Source: a virus
Lineage: Duplodnaviria; Heunggongvirae; Uroviricota; Caudoviricetes
Reading direction: 5' to 3' (one strand)
Length of the DNA stretch: 9,228 nt
Virus record (IMG/VR): IMGVR_UViG_2526164665_000028
Part shown: positions 499 to 9,228 of the stretch, piece after piece
Numbering within the stretch: position 1 is the first letter of the stretch
Layout of the letters: each line of letters begins with the position of its first letter
Position numbers and translations under genes: made by a program
Notes under the pieces: model-generated
Database searches by the model: none
What the model saw: the letters and a program-made list of their open reading frames with translations, nothing else
Told to the model about the DNA's origin: nothing

Positions 499-520
499 CT
501 TCGTGGTCGTATTTTGCTAA

Positions 521-793
521 TCAGACAGGAATTTGCTGACGGTTTGACAGCTTTGACGCGGAGCCATAGCGATTGAGAGTTTGCTGTTGTTTTTCCGGTA
601 TTTTTGCTTTGTCTGATTCCTGTTCATTGCACCGAGGCTTCATAATTATCGTATCCACGCTTTCCAGTGCGGTAAATGTGCAGGAACATTCCAGATTCTG
701 GCACTGATACCATGAGCGTTTAACCGACGGAGCTTCATAGGCGCTGGTTCTGGCGTGAGCGACCGCGCCACATTCAGGACACTTCAGGGCCAT
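521..793 (-). CDS. delta: Ogr/Delta-family zinc-finger late transcription activator (single-domain)
   Basis: ATG at 793 (the longer ORF to 895 overlaps psu). Product MALKCPECGAVAHARTS...YQCQNLECSCTF has the C-x2-C-x22-C-x4-C Ogr/Delta zinc-finger spacing and the AHARTS motif. Start lies 1 nt after the psu stop. Confidence 0.8.
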   Translation of the reverse strand: MALKCPECGAVAHARTSAYEAPSVKRSWYQCQNLECSCTFTALESVDTIIMKPRCNEQESDKAKIPEKQQQTLNRYGSASKLSNRQQIPV

Positions 794-794
794 A

Positions 795-1349
795 TCAGCA
801 CACTCCTTTTTCATTAAGTCGGTTAAGGCGGGCCAGGAAAACTTTATGTTGTGCCGGGGTGAAACTGGCTGAAGCATCAGCGCGCATTGATGCATCCACC
901 GTTAATCCGGTTTCGTCGATAATGCTCTTATATGCTGCTGAAATTACCGGAGTACGCATTTCCGTTTGTCGGGCTACAGCGGTTCGTAATATTTTCATTG
1001 CCGCCTCAAGCCCGTATGGAGCGCAAAGAAAAGGAGCCAGAGCGTCAGTGAGTGCATCACCATGCTCGCTCATGAAGTTTTCCGTTGCGCTTGTAACACA
1101 ACTCTCCAGCACAATCTGATGAGCATAAAGACCATCCCGTGCAGCACAGTTAATCTGCCATTCGAGGACTGCAAGACGCTCACGAAGATCCTCAAGCTGG
1201 CTGGCATATGCTGCCGGTTTTTCTTCAGTATCCAGCAGAGCCGCCAGACGAAGCTGGTAGGTACTTTGCGTATTACGTAGTGTCAGCCAGCTTTTTATCG
1301 CCGAGCGGTAATCGTTGAGTGCTTCCTGAGTAATGGTTCCGGCATTCAT
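795..1349 (-). CDS. psu: Polarity suppression protein Psu (capsid decoration / Rho antagonist)
   Basis: 184-aa product with blocks resembling P4 Psu as I recall it (...ALTDALAPFL..., ...SFTPAQHKVF...). ATG at 1347-1349 overlaps the sid stop (ATGA). Confidence 0.8.
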   Translation of the reverse strand: MNAGTITQEALNDYRSAIKSWLTLRNTQSTYQLRLAALLDTEEKPAAYASQLEDLRERLAVLEWQINCAARDGLYAHQIVLESCVTSATENFMSEHGDALTDALAPFLCAPYGLEAAMKILRTAVARQTEMRTPVISAAYKSIIDETGLTVDASMRADASASFTPAQHKVFLARLNRLNEKGVC

Positions 1350-2098
1350 TTCTTCTCGCCCCCTTTAACCATGTCACGCTGTTTAAGCATCCGTGAACGC
1401 GCTGCAGGGCTGGGGGATTGTCTGGCATCCTGGATGGCTTTATCGTCCGCATAAATGCTGATCCCCGGCAGGGTAATATCATCGGTTGAAGATACGTTAC
1501 AGGACAGTGCCGGAGTGGTGAGTTGCTCGCTGATAAATTGCTTCAGCACACTTTCGGGGTCGTTTACGGTATGAACTACACCGATAACAGCAGAAGCGCT
1601 TCGGCCCAGAGTCATTTTCAGCAGTCCAAGGATCTGAATAAGTTTCTGACCGTGTTCCTTCATAAACTCATTCCAGAGCCACACTGCATGAGTTTCAATC
1701 AGGCGATTATGTTCGCTGATGTAGTGGTTTGCAGCATCCGCAGTTTTCCAGGGCAGGAATTCATTTTCTGCCGCCTGAGCTGCCAGCAAATCTTCGAACT
1801 CATCCAGTGTTTCGCGTCCGAGGGCGATTTCTGCCCGCAGTTTTTTCATGCGTGGCGTCATATTTCCCTGATTCTCACGAAACAGGTTTCGCCATTCATC
1901 ATTAAGCGCCTGCGTTTCCGTTTTTGTATCTTCCTGACGTTTACGGATAGTTTCAATCATTGCAGCAGCTTCAGTTTGTTTTCGTCGTTCTTCCTGCCAG
2001 ACAGCTTTTGCTGCCTTAACTTTATCCACCGCTTCGCGAATTTTCGGTGGGAGGGAGGGTGTAATGTTTGCATCAGGGATCTGGTTAACAGTAGTCAT
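1346..2098 (-). CDS. sid: Sid-like capsid size-determination (external scaffold) protein
   Basis: 250 aa from ATG at 2098, preceded by GGAG 6 nt upstream. The longer ORF to 2131 starts with TTG and has no SD. Size and position (first gene of the leftward late operon, upstream of psu) match P4 sid; coiled-coil-like composition. Confidence 0.75.
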   Translation of the reverse strand: MTTVNQIPDANITPSLPPKIREAVDKVKAAKAVWQEERRKQTEAAAMIETIRKRQEDTKTETQALNDEWRNLFRENQGNMTPRMKKLRAEIALGRETLDEFEDLLAAQAAENEFLPWKTADAANHYISEHNRLIETHAVWLWNEFMKEHGQKLIQILGLLKMTLGRSASAVIGVVHTVNDPESVLKQFISEQLTTPALSCNVSSTDDITLPGISIYADDKAIQDARQSPSPAARSRMLKQRDMVKGGEKK

Positions 2099-2181
2099 GA
2101 CTGCTCCGGTAGTGTTTTGTTGTTGTGTCAATTGTGCCGGGGTCCATACAAGCGCACTACCGAGGAGGATTGTGTCAGTGA

Positions 2182-2470
2182 CTGAACAATGACCTTGTTC
2201 TGGCTAGCCAGAGAAAGGTGTCATGTCTGATCTACACGCTTCCTTTAATACATACTATTCACTACTGTTCACTTCAATAAAAATATAGTAAATACATGTG
2301 GTTAAGTGGTGTAGTGTTTTAATTAAAGTGATCATCTACTGTTCATGACTGTTCACAGAGATAAAATTAAACATATATTTCTTTTTCATATAAGTCGCGA
2401 TATTTATTTCAGTTTATTACTGGATCTTTTCTCCTCACCAATATTCACCAGTATTCACCAGTATTCAATA
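2182..2470. repeat. Iteron cluster (TGTTCAC / ATTCACC type), putative satellite ori-like region
   Basis: Repeated TGTTCAC-like motifs at 2182-2187 (rc), 2267-2273, 2340-2346, 2350-2356, plus tandem 10-bp repeats GTATTCACCA at 2441-2460 with degenerate flanking copies (2431-2470), in an ORF-free AT-rich region. Confidence 0.5.
2340..2357. promoter_or_regulatory. TGT-N12-ACA dyad (Ogr/Delta-type activator site candidate, or an iteron pair)
   Basis: TGTtcatgactgttcACA matches the TGT-N12-ACA dyad found upstream of P2/P4 late promoters; it is also made of two iteron-like half-sites, so the assignment is ambiguous. Confidence 0.3.
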
Positions 2471-3012
2471 CATATTCTATGTAAAGAATAAAAGATGTCT
2501 TATGTCTGTTTAATAATTAAACATTCAACCTCCCTGCACTCAGTTGCATTTCAGGAAAATATTCATAAAAATGAATTTGTCTGATGTTCATTAAACACAT
2601 CCGGATACATGCGGAAGTAAGATGGTAATTTAATTTCTTTAATCATCGGATTTATTGATACATATGGTGAGCTGTTTATTTTTGGCCGTTTTGGCTCTTT
2701 TATTAATCAGGTGTTGTCTTAGTGCTTATGATGTAACGCCCTGAATGATATGGGCTGGTTCAGATTTGAGCTGTGATCCTGCCTAGTGTAATAGACTTTT
2801 TTATTATTGATGCTCCTTATTATATTCCATAAAGGAATTGTTTGTTTTTGTTCGTTTCATACGGTTTTTAGCTGTTTTATTTTTTGAGAAATCAACATTT
2901 CACACAAAATAAATAAAGCATGCGCGAGCCGCTTATATAAACATAATAAGGAGCTACCTGAATCCGCATGGAATTGCCCGGACTGTTGTAAACATATTAG
3001 AGAGGTAGCCAG

Positions 3013-3273
3013 ATGAATAGTATTTCCGTTTCCACCCCGGCACCAGCTGCTCCGGTGCTCCCGGTTCCGGCTCAGCAGGAGCGCTTCATACGATTACCTG
3101 AAGTGATGCACCTTTGCGGGCTATCCCGTTCAACCATCTACGACCTTATCAGCCGCGATGCCTTCCCGCAGCAGATATCCCTGGGTGGAAAAAATGTGGC
3201 CTGGGTACAGTCGGAGGTCAGTGCATGGATGGCGGCGCGAATTGCTGCCCGCGAGCAAGGAGGCCATGCGTGA
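3013..3273 (+). CDS. alpA: AlpA/Vis-family phage transcriptional regulator (excisionase-like HTH)
   Basis: 86 aa; AGAGG 7 nt upstream of ATG. Product ...[49 protein letters not shown]... is the AlpA/Vis helix-turn-helix signature. Confidence 0.85.
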
Positions 3274-3308
3274 AACTTGCTTTGCAGTCTCATCTTCTTT
3301 TTTCTGGC

Positions 3309-3338
3309 TTGCGTCCTGATATCTTTTCCAGGTATAGT
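3309..3338 (+). promoter_or_regulatory. Candidate sigma70 promoter (PLE-like) for the immunity leader
   Basis: TTGCGT (3309-3314), 18-bp spacer, TATAGT (3333-3338), about 30 bp upstream of the first antisense-RNA target site. Confidence 0.3.
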
Positions 3339-3367
3339 TTTCCCGCTGCCGCAAAATCGGCTGCCGG

Positions 3368-3395
3368 GCGTAGGAACCCGAGTTACTTATTGGCG
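3368..3395 (+). promoter_or_regulatory. seqA-like bipartite target for the CI-like antisense RNA
   Basis: Half-sites GTAGGAAC (3370-3377) and CTTATTGG (3386-3393), complementary to TTCCTAC (3545-3551) and CCAATAAG (3529-3536) on the same strand. Confidence 0.5.
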
Positions 3396-3400
3396 ACACC

Positions 3401-3423
3401 AGACGCGCCGTGCGTCTTTTTTT
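3401..3423 (+). terminator. Intrinsic terminator-like hairpin in the immunity leader
   Basis: AGACGC-GCCGT-GCGTCT perfect 6-bp stem followed by TTTTTT. Confidence 0.5.
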
Positions 3424-3487
3424 ACGTCGTTGCTCAGGCACACCCATTTTTCGGGCTGCGGTGCTTATACCTTAGCCCCTTTCAGAT

Positions 3488-3572
3488 AATGGTGGTCCGG
3501 GCGGGGCAGCCTTCGGGCTGGCCGGTTTCCAATAAGGCCGGTATTCCTACCCCCGTTCGGGTCACCACCCAT
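3488..3572 (+). ncRNA. CI / C4-type antisense immunity RNA (boundaries approximate)
   Basis: GGTGGT (3491-3496) pairs with ACCACC (3564-3569) as a terminal stem; internal UUCG-closed hairpin CAGCC-TTCG-GGCTG (3507-3520); exposed region 3526-3552 carries the two blocks complementary to the upstream and downstream targets. The only ORF here (3571-3813, alternative frame) is likely spurious. Confidence 0.5.
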
Positions 3573-3574
3573 GA

Positions 3575-3618
3575 GCGTAGGAACTCCGGTGGTGGCATTT
3601 ACCGCTACTTATTGGAGG
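3575..3618 (+). promoter_or_regulatory. seqC-like second antisense target overlapping the RBS of the next ORF
   Basis: GTAGGAAC (3577-3584) and ACTTATTGG (3607-3615) repeat the seqA-like half-sites; the second abuts and overlaps the GGAGG SD (3614-3618) of the ORF starting at 3627. Confidence 0.5.
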
Positions 3619-3626
3619 TTGCCCTT

Positions 3627-3818
3627 ATGGCTACGATCCTCGCCCCGTCACATCCTCAATTTATATTTGTTTTTGCCGCCGTTCGTCGTGCAGAACGTAA
3701 ACCACGTATCAGTATGCTGCGTATCATCGCCAGCAATGAGCATCATGCACGTCTTTCACTGGTCCATGAGTATGTGCTTTGTCTTGCTGCTCGCCTGCCT
3801 GTCCGGGAGGTGATCTAA
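3627..3818 (+). CDS. Small protein, kil-like by position (first translated gene downstream of the immunity RNA)
   Basis: 63 aa; GGAGG 8 nt upstream of ATG 3627; stop TAA overlaps the next ATG (TAATG). The long overlapping ORF 3114-3818 is an artifact except for this 3' part. Confidence 0.45.
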
Positions 3819-4042
3819 TGAATCACGCCGCAATCTCTTATGACGATATTCTCCGCCTGAAGCATCTTCGTAACGTGGGAGAGTTTGTCACTGGAATGGC
3901 TGTTCTTCAGGATTGCTACGAAAAACCTGCCAGTGCTCAATGTGAACAACTGGTTTCCCTGATTTATCTGATGACAGAGCAGCTTGATGGCGTGGTACAG
4001 CGTTGCCAGGATGACCTCATGAACATGGAGGTGGTGCAATGA
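3818..4042 (+). CDS. Small hypothetical protein of the satellite left operon (epsilon/derepression-protein position)
   Basis: 74 aa from ATG 3818 with GGGAGG 7 nt upstream (the ORF call from 3779 lacks an RBS); stop overlaps the next start (ATGA at 4039-4042). Confidence 0.6.
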
Positions 4043-4362
4043 AATCACGCACTCTTTCCCTTTCACTTCGGGTAGCGTTGTATCGCCGCGCGGTAGCCTG
4101 CGCCTGGTTGAGTGCCTGCTATCAGCAAAACCGCCATCTGCAGCTCACTCTGGATGAAATTGAAACCGCTATTGCCCGTGAGCTTGAAGGATTTTATCTG
4201 CGACAGCACGGGCAAACAAAAGGCATGGAAATCGCCTGCGCCCTGCTTTCAGACCTGATGGAATACGGCCCTCTAATGTCCTGTCCCGCACTCTCCCAGC
4301 TCGGAATAGCCGTAATGGATGAGTTATGCGTCCGTCACATCAAAAAGCCGGTTTTACACTGA
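4039..4362 (+). CDS. Hypothetical protein of the satellite left operon (immediately upstream of primase)
   Basis: 107 aa; GGAGG at 4027-4031 upstream of ATG 4039; translationally coupled to the preceding ORF. Confidence 0.6.
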
Positions 4363-4376
4363 GGGAGAACTGCGTC

Positions 4377-6710
4377 ATGTCAGGAATGAAAGTCAGTCAG
4401 GCCGTGAAGGCTGCCCGCGGTCACTGGGCTCAGATTCTGCCAGCGCTGGGCGTGAATATATTGAAAAATCGCCATCAGCCTTGCCCGGTCTGTGGCGGTA
4501 AAGATCGTTTTCGCTTCGACGATCAGGAAGGACGCGGAACATGGTTCTGCAATCAGTGCGGAGCCGGGGATGGTTTAGCGCTTGTCACCAGGGCACTGAA
4601 TGTGGATATCAGTGAAGCAGCTGACAGGATACATGGACTGACACATGATCTGTCTGTAGTTAATTCCGAGGTCAGGACGTTAACCGCCGATACCGATAGC
4701 GGGAAAGATGCAGCGGCAGCACTTGCCGCGCGACTGCTGCAAGCCTCGCGTGAATCTGCCGGAAACACTTATCTTACACATAAAGGTTTCCCGGAGCATA
4801 TTTGCCATGAGCTGACTTCAGCTCATAAGGCCGGTGGTATGATGTTCCGCCCCGGTGATTTGATCGTCCCACTCTATAACGCTGACGGGGAGCTGGTGAA
4901 TATTCAGCTCATCAGTGGCAATGGTAGCAAGTGTTTTCTTAAAGGAGGTCAGGTTAAGGAGGCCTATCATCTGATAGAAGGGGGCGGGAGTTCTGTAAGA
5001 AGGATTTGGATTGCGGAAGGTTACGCCACGGCGCTTACCATTCATTATTTGACAGGAGAAGCCGTCATGGTGGCATTTTCGTCGGTCAACTTTCTTTCTC
5101 TGAGCAGCGTTGCCCATAATAAGTATCCGGGATATCAGTTAATTATTGCAGCGGACCGCGATCTGAATGGTTCAGGCCAGAACAGGGCTGAAACTGCTGC
5201 AAAAGCGAGTCAGTGTGACATTGTGCTGCCACCGGTTTTTGGTGACTGGAATGATGCGCTTACCCAATACGGAGAGGAATCCACCCGGAAGGCAATTCTT
5301 GAGGCTTTGAAGCCACATAACGCCAGTCCTTTCGACACAATGAGTGAAGCAGAATTCACAGCGATGAGTGTCAGCGAAAAAGCTCAGAGGGTTCGGGAGC
5401 ATTACAGGGATGCACTGGCGGTTGATCCGAACGGGCAGCTTTTATCCCGCTACGAGTCTGGAGCGTGGAAAGTTATTTCTCAGTCAGATTTTGCCCGAGA
5501 TGTCGCAGCCCTTTTCCAGCGCCTCGGGGCACCGTTTTCCTCAGGAAAAATTGCCTCACTGGTGGAAACATTAAAGTTAATTGTTCCGCAGCAGCAAAAT
5601 CCGTCACGTCATCTGATTGGTTTTCGTAATGGCGTTCTCGATACGCGAACAGGGCTTTTTAGTCCGCACTGTAAAGAGAACTGGCTGCGTACCCTGTGTG
5701 AAGTCGATTTCACGCCACCGGTAAAGGGGGAAACGCTTGAAACTCATGCCCCGGCATTCTGGCGTTGGCTGGACCGGGCCGCCGGACACAAGCCAGCAAA
5801 ACGCGACATTATTCTTGCAGCGTTATTTATGGTGCTGGCGAACCGCTATGACTGGCAGCTCTTTCTGGAAGTGACTGGCCCTGGTGGAAGTGGCAAAAGT
5901 ATTCTGGCTGAAATTGCGACCATGCTTGCTGGAGAGGATAACGCCACCTCTGCGACCATTGAAACGCTGGAGTCCCCGCGAGAACGTGCGGCTCTGATAG
6001 GTTTTTCTCTTATTCGCCTGCCTGATCAGGAGAAGTGGAGCGGCGACGGCGCCGGGCTTAAGGCTATAACTGGTGGCGATGCAGTATCTGTGGACCCCAA
6101 ATATCAGAATGCTTATTCAACACATATTCCGGCGGTTATCTTGGCCGTAAATAATAATCCTATGCGCTTCACTGATCGCAGTGGTGGTGTGTCCCGCAGG
6201 AGAGTTATTCTGCATTTTCCTGAGCAGATAGCACCGGAAGAACGCGATCCGCAGTTGAAAGATAAAATTGCACGAGAACTGGCTGTGATTGTTCGTCAGC
6301 TCATGCAGCGTTTCAGCGATCCGATGAGCGCCAGAACATTGCTTCAGTCGCAGCAGAATTCTGATGAGGCTCTCACCATCAAGCGTGATGCTGATCCAGC
6401 ATTTGATTTTTGTGGCTACCTTGAGGCATTACCTGACACCAACGGTATGTTTATGGGGAACGCCAATATTGTCCCACGCCAGCCACGTACATACCTTTAC
6501 CATGCCTACCTCGTATACATGGAGGCTAATGGCTATAAAAACACCCTGAGTCTTACGATGTTTGGCAAAGGGTTGCCAGTCATGCTGAAGGAGTACGGGC
6601 TACATTATGAGAAACGGCGAACTAATCAGGGAATGCAAACTAACCTCACTTTGAAAGAGGAGAGTAATGCAGACTGGCTGCCCAAGTGTGATGAGCCAAT
6701 ATTAAAATAA
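4377..6710 (+). CDS. P4 alpha-type primase-helicase (zinc-ribbon, TOPRIM primase, SF3/D5-type helicase, C-terminal origin-binding region)
   Basis: ATG 4377 with GGGAG 9 nt upstream, giving 777 aa (the ORF call from 4326 overlaps the previous gene). N-terminal CPVCGGKDRFRFDD...WFCNQCGAGDG zinc-binding motif, TOPRIM-like IAEGYATALT...IIAADRD, Walker A VTGPGGSGKS. Confidence 0.9.
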   Translation: MSGMKVSQAVKAARGHWAQILPALGVNILKNRHQPCPVCGGKDRFRFDDQEGRGTWFCNQCGAGDGLALVTRALNVDISEAADRIHGLTHDLSVVNSEVRTLTADTDSGKDAAAALAARLLQASRESAGNTYLTHKGFPEHICHELTSAHKAGGMMFRPGDLIVPLYNADGELVNIQLISGNGSKCFLKGGQVKEAYHLIEGGGSSVRRIWIAEGYATALTIHYLTGEAVMVAFSSVNFLSLSSVAHNKYPGYQLIIAADRDLNGSGQNRAETAAKASQCDIVLPPVFGDWNDALTQYGEESTRKAILEALKPHNASPFDTMSEAEFTAMSVSEKAQRVREHYRDALAVDPNGQLLSRYESGAWKVISQSDFARDVAALFQRLGAPFSSGKIASLVETLKLIVPQQQNPSRHLIGFRNGVLDTRTGLFSPHCKENWLRTLCEVDFTPPVKGETLETHAPAFWRWLDRAAGHKPAKRDIILAALFMVLANRYDWQLFLEVTGPGGSGKSILAEIATMLAGEDNATSATIETLESPRERAALIGFSLIRLPDQEKWSGDGAGLKAITGGDAVSVDPKYQNAYSTHIPAVILAVNNNPMRFTDRSGGVSRRRVILHFPEQIAPEERDPQLKDKIARELAVIVRQLMQRFSDPMSARTLLQSQQNSDEALTIKRDADPAFDFCGYLEALPDTNGMFMGNANIVPRQPRTYLYHAYLVYMEANGYKNTLSLTMFGKGLPVMLKEYGLHYEKRRTNQGMQTNLTLKEESNADWLPKCDEPILK

Positions 6711-6721
6711 CGATTAACTAA

Positions 6722-6746
6722 CCCGGCTGATGCCGGGCTTCTTATT
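6722..6746 (+). terminator. Intrinsic terminator after the primase gene
   Basis: CCCGGC-TGAT-GCCGGG hairpin followed by CTTCTTATT, 12 bp past the alpha stop. Confidence 0.55.
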
Positions 6747-6771
6747 GGAAACGCACAAATGTAGAGATAGC

Positions 6772-6979
6772 TGTTCACTCTTCACCTCGCTGTTAACACG
6801 TAAACAATTGATATATAAGTTAAAAATGGCAGGGTGAATAGTGTGCATGGTTTTGCGAAAAAAAAGTATTTTTTGTAGAGTCAAGTCCCGGTTTGGATCC
6901 GTTTAACGGAACCTAACTAGATTGACTATTTCTCTGATGATTTTTGGATAAATAATCAACAAAAATCAAAATGTGAACA
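6772..6979. repeat. Second iteron cluster (crr-like), downstream of primase
   Basis: TGTTCACT (6772-6779), TTCACC (6781-6786), TGTTAACA (6791-6798), GGTGAATA (6833-6840, rc TATTCACC), GTGAACA (6973-6979, rc TGTTCAC). Confidence 0.45.
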
Positions 6980-7060
6980 GAGAATGGTGGGGGCACAAAA
7001 AGGGGCATAATTGAATTAATTATAATTAAATTTCAATTTTTACAATAGGTTAAATGTGTG

Positions 7061-7082
7061 TGCGAGTCCGGCCTTCGCACCA
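7061..7082 (+). other. att core: 3'-terminal fragment of a tRNA-Leu (leuX-type) gene, probable attR / right boundary of the satellite
   Basis: TGCGAGTCCGGCCTTCGCACCA matches the T-loop/acceptor 3' end of E. coli tRNA-Leu(CAA) as I recall it (TTCGAGTCCGGCCTTCGGCACCA) with two differences. No 5' half is present, so this is a duplicated integration-site fragment, not a tRNA gene. Confidence 0.55.
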
Positions 7083-7615
7083 AGTTACTAAATTCCTTAC
7101 AATACAGTTAGTTAGACGATTAAATCTGTCTCTTTTGCCTGTAAGAAATGCTCTGTTATGTCCCTTGAAAAAGCCGCTGTGGTTGATAGTGGTAATTGGG
7201 ATGTTAACTCATAGCGGCGTGTCGTTCCAAGCGTCAAACACGTACTGACTCAACTTGAAAGCTATGACGTAGCCACCGTCTCTAAACAATCCCAAAACTT
7301 TTAGTGCAGCGCATTTTAGCCCGATGCCCCCATTCTGTCGCCGTCGCGAGACGCCGCAGGGGATAAACAGGTTTATGGTGGTCACGGTACTTGCAGACCA
7401 TATGCAAGCTCTGCCAGCGGTTCGGCCTCGCTCCCCTTGGGTACATGGTCATCCTGATAAGCCTCACTAACTGACATAACCCTGATGAAGTCGCAAGAGG
7501 CTCCGCTTGTTGTCTTACCACCAACGGGGCTTTATGGATTCTATTGCTTAATATATGATTGTATCAAACTTAGACTGCATAATTTAAACGAACATAACAA
7601 TCAGGCAGGGGAAGA

Positions 7616-8440
7616 ATGATAAAGCCATTTTCTGTGAGGTATGGTCATGTTGACGTTAGAGAGCATGTCCAGCTGAATGATCTTAATTCTGATACACGCA
7701 TGGCATTGTGGAATTGCTTATATCTTTTCCTTTGGACTAACAATCGTCAAACTGCTACAGCAACAAAATGTGCGCAGTCTGTGTGGATATATTATCTAAA
7801 TCAACCTGCGGATAATATTCCTCGTTATGAAAGTGGATACAAAAGTGATAAGACGTTGCTGACTGCTATCCGAGATTATATATATGGGGAAGCATGGTAT
7901 TTGGTATATGATTTAATTGAGTTCATCATTGAGAGAACTAATTCATATATTAATCTATCGAAGCATCTCAATTCCATCTTTAAAAAGCATGGCGTTGGTT
8001 ATACCATAATAAATGGTTGTATTACTCCTATTTCAAATGATAACGAAATTGAAAGTGTTCAGAACGCAGTTGATAATGGCACTGATTCATCGCGTAGCCA
8101 TTTCGAAAGGGCGTTACAACTAATGACGGATAGAGAGCAGCCAGACTACAGAAACTCGATTAAAGAGTCTATCTCTGCAATTGAATCTTTATGCAGGAAA
8201 ATCACGGGCAATGATAAAGGAACCTTGGGGGCTTGTCTTAAAGCTATAGAGGAAAAAGGATATATACACTCTGCAATGAAAGGCGCTTTTAGTCAGCTCT
8301 ATGGTTATACAAGTGATCAGGGTGGAATACGTCATGCGCTAACAGAAGAAGATGTAAATCCTACCTTAGCTGAAGCTAAATTTATGTTAGTCACTTGCAG
8401 TGCGTTCAGTAATTATCTGTTGTCAAAAATAAGTGATTAA
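7616..8440 (+). CDS. Hypothetical protein, tentatively AbiJ-like abortive-infection protein (HEPN/Abi_C-like C-terminal region)
   Basis: 274 aa; GGGGAAG upstream of ATG 7616; stop TAA at 8438-8440. Strongly AT-biased codons. N-terminus MIKPFSVRYGHV...ALWN and C-terminal ...YGYTSDQGGIRHALTEED... recall AbiJ-N/Abi_C proteins, but this is from memory of motif patterns only. Confidence 0.55.
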   Translation: MIKPFSVRYGHVDVREHVQLNDLNSDTRMALWNCLYLFLWTNNRQTATATKCAQSVWIYYLNQPADNIPRYESGYKSDKTLLTAIRDYIYGEAWYLVYDLIEFIIERTNSYINLSKHLNSIFKKHGVGYTIINGCITPISNDNEIESVQNAVDNGTDSSRSHFERALQLMTDREQPDYRNSIKESISAIESLCRKITGNDKGTLGACLKAIEEKGYIHSAMKGAFSQLYGYTSDQGGIRHALTEEDVNPTLAEAKFMLVTCSAFSNYLLSKISD

Positions 8441-8458
8441 TTACAGGTTTATAGTTAC

Positions 8459-8479
8459 GAGTGGGTTAGTTACCCACTC
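8459..8479. terminator. Hairpin between convergent genes (possible bidirectional terminator)
   Basis: GAGTGGGT-TAGTT-ACCCACTC 8-bp stem in the 48-bp gap between the convergent ORFs, with flanking A/T-rich sequence. Confidence 0.45.
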
Positions 8480-8488
8480 CCTTTAAAA

Positions 8489-8964
8489 TTATTCACCAGA
8501 CTCTAATCTTTTTTCTCTTTTCTCATCTCTCCTTTTTATTGCCAAATCGTGTTGCTCTTGCAGATACGTGCGTTCTTCGTTTCTATCGCTTGAAGTATAT
8601 ACGTCTGCTTTTACTTTTTTAGCTCCTTGTGCAATAGGTTTCCAATCCTCTCTTATACCTTTAATTTGTTCTGCAATTTGCGTCAATGGGCTTCTCGCTC
8701 CTAGATAACTTATTCCTTCAAATGTCGCCATGTCATACACATATTCATTTGTTTCTCTATCGTTTGATTTAGGTTTGCTTGCCCAGCTTATATTAATATT
8801 ATAAATTTGATCTTTGATTTGTTCATACTTACAGAGATTGCTGGTAAGTGATTGCCCATTTTTTAACACGCTTACCTTACTAAACGGAATCTCACTTTTT
8901 TCTCTATGCTCCGCATTTACTAGTGGAGGATCAAACACAACCTCAACATTATAGGCAGGTGAGG
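8489..8964 (-). pseudogene. Hypothetical protein, 5'-truncated by IS3-family insertion (remnant ORF; first ~44 codons of the 8489-9097 ORF are IS-derived)
   Basis: The ORF reads in frame across the IS terminus at 8965. Downstream of the junction the first in-frame ATG is far inside the ORF; only a GTG at 8936-8938 with a close GAGG is available. AT-rich composition like the neighbouring gene. Confidence 0.5.
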
Positions 8965-8975
8965 TGTACTGGCAA
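8948..8975 (-). promoter_or_regulatory. Hybrid outward promoter at the IS3 junction
   Basis: On the minus strand, TTGCCA (IS terminal repeat, 8970-8975), 16-bp spacer, TATAAT (flanking DNA, 8948-8953), reading into the truncated gene. Confidence 0.4.
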
Positions 8976-9228
8976 TAGCGGACACTACCATTTGTTCTTT
9001 TTTTAAGCAGCCATCTGATGATATTTTTCCCTGAAGGCTGCCGGGGAGATATTCCCCAGACGAGAGTGACGACGCTGACGATTGTAGAAAATCTCAATGT
9101 ATTCCCGTATTACTGAGATGGCTTCATCCCGGTTATTAAAACGATAGTGGCTCAGGCTCTCATTTTTCAGCGTTCCCCAGAAGCTTTCCATCGGAGCGTT
9201 GTCGTAACAGTTACCTTTACGCGACATT
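8965..9228 (-). mobile_element. IS3-family insertion sequence, terminal part (continues right of window)
   Basis: Terminus TGTACTGGCAATAGCGGACAC at 8965-8985 resembles IS3-family terminal inverted repeats (TG end, CAATAGxGGACAC block); the transposase C-terminus lies just inside it. Confidence 0.7.
9003..9228 (-). CDS. IS3-family transposase OrfB C-terminal fragment (integrase catalytic core end)
   Basis: ...GNCYDNAPMESFWGTLKNE...RDEAISVIREYIEIFYNRQRRHSRLGNISPAAFREKY is the conserved C-terminal region of IS3-family OrfB; stop TAA at 9003-9005; 5' end beyond the window. Confidence 0.8.
   Translation of the reverse strand, partial: MSRKGNCYDNAPMESFWGTLKNESLSHYRFNNRDEAISVIREYIEIFYNRQRRHSRLGNISPAAFREKYHQMAA

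Follow-up and report, generated by a model that had tools for sequence, protein, structure and literature searches.

An IS600 insertion in an Escherichia coli O26:H11 lineage yields a candidate hybrid sigma-70 promoter facing a gene remnant

Introduction

IS3-family insertion sequences transpose via minicircles. In IS911 and IS2, the joined ends of the element assemble a strong junction promoter, for which the right end provides the -35 element and the left end the -10 element (PMC9330008, PMC3299598, PMC12095673). The same outward-facing -35 can instead combine with a -10 of the genome into a hybrid promoter (PMC12095673, PMC9330008, PMC3299598). The IS2 junction promoter has been reported to require a spacer of exactly 17 (PMC3299598). 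Some elements need no partner: complete outward-directed promoters were estimated to be present in ~26% of 706 IS3 elements (PMC12095673). The documented IS hybrid promoters (IS1, IS2, IS257/tetA(K), IS256/llm, ISKpn8 in Tn4401) share an outward -35-like hexamer in the terminal inverted repeat, a -10 that pre-exists in the target at a distance of 16-18 bp, and a target that has no usable -35 before insertion. IS600 was not found among these cases in the literature searched, nor was any report of an IS600 outward promoter, an IS600 junction promoter or IS600 minicircles.

Here we analyze an insertion at one edge of a 9,228-nt stretch of DNA, referred to throughout as the window. The initial annotation of this stretch had proposed that an IS3-family insertion created a near-consensus outward promoter driving a 5'-truncated gene, and had premised this on outward -35 elements in IS3-family ends, which are established for right ends (PMC12095673, PMC9330008, PMC3299598). 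We describe the element, the promoter-like site and the interrupted gene, and weigh what the site may do. The locus carries every sequence-level hallmark of an IS/target hybrid sigma-70 promoter, namely a -35 borne by the IS, a -10 in the flanking DNA and no such promoter beforehand.

Results

The last 269 bp of the window (8960-9228) are 100% identical to thousands of annotated IS600 copies in complete E. coli genomes. The IS3-family identity given earlier is thereby confirmed and narrowed to IS600. The complete element is available in the locus of E. coli O26:H11 str. 11368 (L003), whose coordinates equal those of the window plus 241. The features of the element are as follows.

8960-9228, minus strand: right end of IS600 (IS3 family), with its inverted repeat beginning at 8960 and the stop codon of orfB at 9003-9005; the window ends within orfB.
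8957-8959, unstranded: AGG, one of the two copies of the 3-bp target-site duplication; its counterpart lies outside the window, beyond the far end of IS600 (L003 10465-10467).
L003 9201-9240 and 10425-10464: the ends of IS600, comprising its left and right repeats.

In str. 11368, IS600 measures 1264 bp and has TG...CA ends. Its terminal repeats are imperfect, the left one beginning TGAGGTAGCC... and the right one TGAGGTGTAC..., and its transposase is annotated by RefSeq as intact with a programmed frameshift (WP_085948186.1). AGG is found at both ends of the element and occurs once in the IS-free alleles of ATCC 11775 (L001) and E2865 (L002), which read GGCAGGTGCGTT; the event was therefore a simple insertion that duplicated 3 bp of the target. 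Since the transposase is encoded on the minus strand, the window holds the right inverted repeat, and IS600 and the interrupted gene have the same orientation. A consensus scan found no complete outward promoter of at least 9/12 within 8960-9228.

The promoter-like site spans the tip of the element and consists of the following parts.

8970-8975, minus strand: -35-like hexamer TTGCCA, a 5/6 match to TTGACA, facing outward at nucleotides 11-16 of the IS600 right inverted repeat, counted from its tip.
8954-8969, minus strand: spacer of 16 nt, made up of 10 nt of IS600 tip (GTACACCTCA) and 6 nt of target DNA (CCTGCC).
8948-8953, minus strand: -10 hexamer TATAAT, a 6/6 match, formed by two adjacent in-frame codons of the interrupted gene (TAT-AAT, Tyr-Asn).
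8940-8943, minus strand: predicted transcription start, placed from the geometry 5-8 nt downstream of the -10.

Read along the minus strand, the junction is ...GCTA TTGCCA GTACACCTCA/CCTGCC TATAAT GTTGAGG..., with the slash at the IS600 tip. The hexamers, their strand and the 16-nt spacing had been reported exactly (TTGCCA at 8975-8970, TATAAT at 8953-8948). With the IS boundary at 8960, TTGCCA must fall within the IS600 right inverted repeat, which agrees with the earlier placement of an outward-facing -35 in the terminal repeat. The TATAAT belongs to flanking DNA, 6 nt past the tip, and the CCTGCC between them takes in the duplicated AGG/CCT. In a scan against the TTGACA/TATAAT consensus, the pair matches at 11/12 positions and is the top sigma-70-like site of the window. 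The spacer is 1 nt under the optimum, a TG extended -10 is absent and no clear UP element is seen at the site. TTGCCA itself is invariant in 48/48 other IS600 right ends examined.

Comparison with the IS-free alleles defines what the insertion changed. In these alleles the best -35 at spacers of 15-19 scores 3/6, against 5/6 with IS600 in place, and the -35/-10 pair rises from at most 9/12 to 11/12. The insertion therefore creates a promoter-like site, and to say that it "creates a promoter" is fair as a sequence description. The gene does not begin downstream of 8964: the IS-free alleles extend 102 nt further upstream, to the start codon of a 190-amino-acid hypothetical protein (WP_000227281.1). 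The earlier description of a 5'-truncated gene stands; the missing part is interrupted rather than deleted, as the first 102 nt of the gene lie across IS600, after the AGG duplication.

L001 5560-5700 and L003 10468-10600: equivalent, in IS-free alleles, of window positions 8960-9061, the location of the earlier 5' truncation described below.

The TATAAT had also been suggested to be the native -10 of the disrupted gene. It encodes the Tyr-Asn pair of NAPAYN[VI]E, a conserved motif in Enterobacter, Klebsiella, Yersinia, Citrobacter and others, and the Enterobacter gene has TATGAT at the matching codons. In frame within a conserved motif, TATAAT is thus part of the coding sequence rather than a -10 belonging to the gene, and this suggestion is not supported.

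The interrupted gene belongs to the PHROG 11802 family. The remnant and its in-frame start codons are listed here.

8489-8959, minus strand: 3' remnant of a PHROG 11802-family gene, with 156 codons and a stop, corresponding to residues ~79-234 of full-length relatives.
8938, minus strand: in-frame GTG, ~5 nt from the predicted transcription start.
8869, minus strand: in-frame GTG with a weak AAGG Shine-Dalgarno (SD) sequence (-3.9 kcal/mol).
8731, minus strand: in-frame ATG without an SD sequence.
8686, minus strand: in-frame TTG with an AGGAG SD sequence; only 65 amino acids are left.

Relatives outside E. coli are 228-234 amino acids long and have ~44 extra N-terminal residues that include a hydrophobic helix (ISAFAALLTAVATFFLWRV). 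The PHROG 11802 profile has 230 positions, and an Enterobacter relative (79% identical) matches positions 1-228 of these (E 1e-115); it is preceded by a proper SD sequence (GAGGGAG) and its start codon lies far upstream. In a structure model (mean pLDDT 79), a helix at residues 2-49 is followed by seven strands at 54-154 and by C-terminal helices. On the basis of this model, the family is predicted to combine a membrane-anchor helix with an Ig-like beta-sandwich and C-terminal helices in ~230 amino acids. The IS600 junction falls at residue ~79, so that the N-terminal membrane helix and beta-strands one and two are missing from the remnant. With residues ~79-234 alone retained, the window copy is no intact member of PHROG 11802 but a remnant of one.

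The E. coli allele had been damaged earlier. Its "start" methionine corresponds to the internal methionine of KRMVDAS in the relatives, and the frame upstream of the annotated methionine still encodes ..ADETKR before it abuts the left end of an IS911. About 37-44 N-terminal codons and the promoter had been lost to IS911. Given the longer N-terminus of the relatives and the IS911 end upstream, the "intact" E. coli allele is therefore already 5'-truncated, and the sequence indicates that the target was hit twice, by IS911 and then by IS600 in the O26:H11 lineage. WP_000227281.1 is annotated by RefSeq as a normal hypothetical protein of 190 amino acids, its 5' truncation notwithstanding.

No convincing translation start or ribosome-binding site was found in the remnant downstream of the predicted transcription start, and from its sequence a functional protein product appears unlikely. 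A separate open frame of 202 codons (8489-9097, minus strand) opens at a TTG within IS600, crosses the inverted repeat and continues into the remnant. It overlaps the 3' end of orfB in another frame, and its IS-derived part has no ATG. Read-through transcripts from IS600 could in principle encode an IS-gene fusion peptide by way of this frame.

Beyond the remnant, the predicted transcript would face a candidate defence gene.

7616-8440, plus strand: AbiJ-NTD4 gene, convergent with the remnant; PADLOC candidate defence gene PDC-S32 (E 6e-104), Pfam PF18863.
8459-8479, unstranded: 8-bp GC-rich perfect hairpin (GAGTGGGT/ACCCACTC) between the convergent genes; fold z ~ -3 on both strands.

The stop codons of the two genes are 48 bp apart, and the hairpin is the sole structure ahead of AbiJ-NTD4 on the minus-strand path. 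It is followed by a weak U-run on the plus strand and by none on the minus strand; hence it resembles a terminator of AbiJ rather than one of the opposing transcript. The remnant RNA has more G than C, with C-over-G stretches found only inside the AbiJ antisense region, so that Rho-type termination before AbiJ is not obviously favored. Given the U-less hairpin and the G-over-C composition, a minus-strand transcript could possibly pass the hairpin and read AbiJ-NTD4 in antisense. We also considered whether AbiJ-NTD4 and the 230-amino-acid gene form an obligate pair. They are convergent in Enterobacter roggenkampii and are not so arranged in Klebsiella michiganensis, and a two-gene rule is therefore not supported.

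A P4-like satellite occupies much of the window, and its boundary bears on where these genes belong.

~520-6710: P4-like satellite with ogr/delta-like, psu, Icd-like and primase-helicase genes.
~7061-7082: 3' fragment of tRNA-Leu (leuX), which marks the satellite attR; it carries a 1-nt deletion and is missed by ARAGORN.

From ~7061-7082 onward, the window is collinear with the DNA directly after the intact leuX of satellite-free ATCC 11775. AbiJ-NTD4 and the remnant are therefore part of an older leuX island outside the satellite; satellite cargo, an origin we had considered for both, is ruled out by the attR and this collinearity. A scan against Rfam yielded no credible RNA family in 6700-9228. 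Other, independent insertions were seen nearby: in strain 07_3636 (L083, NZ_CP074928.1; region 2692-3848) a further IS600 separates AbiJ-NTD4 from the primase gene and points its left end at the start of AbiJ, and IS1A lies in the same 1.5 kb in three other strains (G1/2, G6/7, G8). The AT-rich stretch next to leuX is a recurrent IS target.

We assessed how readily such a site arises by chance. As a statistic of the whole window it is not remarkable: 12 promoter-like sites were observed against 13.7 expected, and at least one site of 11/12 occurs in 13% of dinucleotide shuffles of the window. When IS600 was inserted in silico at each position in both orientations, a perfect TATAAT at a spacer of 16-18 resulted in 0.07-0.09% of positions, rising to 0.34% in the AT-rich segment 7000-8959; a -10 of at least 5/6 was obtained in ~1% and of at least 4/6 in ~5%. 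Among real right-end flanks, 0/48 distinct ones reach 5/6 at the right spacing and two reach 4/6, in a control that was drawn from species-representative genomes by scanning for exact matches to the IS600 tip and that comes mostly from two Shigella-type genomes and otherwise from a few short contigs that are probably contaminant. A good -10 at an IS600 end is rare, yet within what chance allows.

Some short contigs with exact matches to the IS600 right end carry the labels Streptomyces sp., Bacteroidetes MAG, Proteobacteria MAG and Lachnospiraceae MAG (L032, L035, L048, L060). The presence of these matches most likely stems from contamination of those assemblies by E. coli/Shigella DNA or from mis-binning. 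BLAST matches that run a few bases past the IS600 tip suggested a shared TGCC..TAAT target motif; these matches were dropped as a control because BLAST had picked their flanks for likeness to the present one.

IS600 is found at 6577 places in the complete-genome set, not all of them independent sites; with thousands of copies in E. coli and Shigella, a few coincidences of this kind are expected without selection. The exact junction between IS600 and this flank occurs in 21/5426 complete genomes, in each of them with 100% identity across the 401-nt query. Among the carriers listed are O26 and O26:H11 strains; one of these is str. 11368, where the junction lies at 5,539,93x of NC_013361.1. Over 1560 bp the flank matches IS-free alleles at 100% identity. 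This is a single recent insertion, with no sign of selection.

Discussion

In its architecture, the junction resembles the documented IS hybrid promoters in all three respects: the outward -35-like hexamer is part of the terminal inverted repeat, the -10 was present in the target at a distance of 16-18 bp, and the target had no usable -35 beforehand. It differs from them in that its -10 is a coding-sequence accident inside a gene and in that the DNA downstream is a doubly truncated pseudogene rather than an intact silent gene. The junction promoters of IS911, IS2, IS3 and IS150 likewise take their -35 from the right end; here, unlike there, the partner -10 is chromosomal and not the left end of the IS. 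In IS3-family elements with complete outward promoters, the promoter signatures cluster at the ends, and neighboring DNA can be transcribed from them (PMC12095673); here, too, the signature is at an end, whereas this IS600 end supplies half a promoter only.

IS600 may encode a junction promoter of its own. Joining its ends in silico gives TTGCCA and TAGCCT at a spacing of 17 (2-bp junction) or 18 (3-bp junction), an 8/12 match with a TAnnnT core. The chromosomal hybrid, at 11/12, is nearer consensus than this presumptive junction promoter. Between the left and right repeats, differences fall at exactly the positions that form the two half-sites. The normal role of TTGCCA would presumably be to pair with the left-end TAGCCT on circularisation, as in the IS911 and IS2 junction promoters, and such a role is a plausible account of its position in the repeat.

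In our reading, a complete IS600 made a simple insertion, oriented like its target, into a gene remnant that lies just downstream of leuX in an E. coli O26:H11 lineage. By chance, the insertion point put TTGCCA 16 bp upstream of a TATAAT contributed by the Tyr-Asn codons of the target, and the outcome would be a classical IS/target hybrid sigma-70 promoter that RNA polymerase can presumably use. Transcription would most likely start at ~8941 on the minus strand, to give an RNA that covers the ~450-nt remnant and possibly continues into the 3' end of the convergent AbiJ-NTD4 gene. In view of two disruptions, no anchor, two of seven strands gone and a poor start, such a transcript is most likely a non-functional by-product and not a selected feature. 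That a hybrid promoter arose here by chance and mostly transcribes a non-functional remnant is, in our judgment, probably the correct account of the site.

Several considerations qualify how active the site may be. The strength of the promoter is not readable from the hexamers alone, given that the IS2 junction promoter needs a spacer of exactly 17 and the present one is 16. The region is AT-rich and horizontally acquired and may be silenced; by analogy with IS2 footprints (PMC3299598), transposase bound at the inverted repeat could occlude the -35 box; and read-through from the promoter of IS600 itself could transcribe the remnant without the hybrid site. Taken to their end, these points lead to the reading that the site is a sequence coincidence, transcriptionally silent or negligible through its suboptimal 16-nt spacer, silencing of AT-rich foreign DNA by nucleoid proteins or occupancy by transposase, and that any remnant RNA stems from IS600 read-through. 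An 11/12 site in 13% of shuffled windows, the lack of a TG extended -10 and the strict spacer-length dependence of the IS2 junction promoter (PMC3299598) all fit a silent site, as do the shared orientation of IS600 and the gene and the failure to find a terminator-like site from the orfB stop to the IS tip. Against this, natural E. coli promoters hardly come nearer to consensus than a perfect -10 paired with a 5/6 -35 at 16-18 nt, and hybrid promoters of exactly such architecture have repeatedly been documented as active (PMC9330008, PMC12095673). We regard silence as a tenable but rather unlikely explanation.

The remaining readings are much less probable than silence. One holds that the hybrid promoter is adaptive and has been retained in the O26:H11 clade because convergent or antisense transcription tunes AbiJ-NTD4 (PDC-S32). 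The convergent arrangement with 48 bp between stops, the hairpin without a minus-strand U-run and an RNA that does not obviously favor Rho-type termination before AbiJ are consistent with it, as are the independent hits on the same 1.5 kb by IS600 upstream of AbiJ and by IS1A elsewhere. It is countered by the evidence for one recent event, with 21 identical copies and a flank 100% identical to IS-free alleles, which leaves persistence explained by descent; moreover, a coincidence of ~0.1-0.3% per insertion fits chance given thousands of IS600 copies. We consider adaptive retention very doubtful. Comparably improbable is the idea that IS600 made a strong promoter whose read-through lowers expression of AbiJ-NTD4, a potentially toxic abortive-infection gene, by transcriptional interference or antisense RNA; if true, an insertion sequence would be the regulator of an anti-phage defence gene in the O26:H11 clade. 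There is likewise little to recommend a functional, N-terminally truncated protein made from an internal start: the frame is open from the junction to 8489, and GTG 8869 and TTG 8686 have AAGG (weak) and AGGAG SD sequences, respectively, but these start signals are weak, the product would lack the membrane helix and at least 3/7 of the beta-sandwich strands, and the E. coli allele had been truncated by IS911 beforehand. Least credible of all is that IS600 merely landed in the promoter of the gene, with TATAAT as its native -10. The perfect hexamer itself speaks for this; it lies, however, 102 nt downstream of the annotated E. coli start and ~230 nt past the true family start, encodes Tyr-Asn in a motif shared across genera and has no usable -35 without the IS, and full-length relatives carry their start codon and GAGGGAG SD sequence far upstream.

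Judged from its sequence, then, the chance hybrid promoter at the IS600 junction in O26:H11 would be a new instance of a well-known mechanism. If active, the site would add a further natural case of an insertion sequence making a promoter from half-sites, here with IS600, and would place a candidate defence gene of a pathogenic E. coli lineage under antisense transcription. The main value of the analysis is corrective: the "truncated gene" is a twice-disrupted pseudogene, the TATAAT is coding sequence, and the coincidence that joined it to an IS600 end is within chance.
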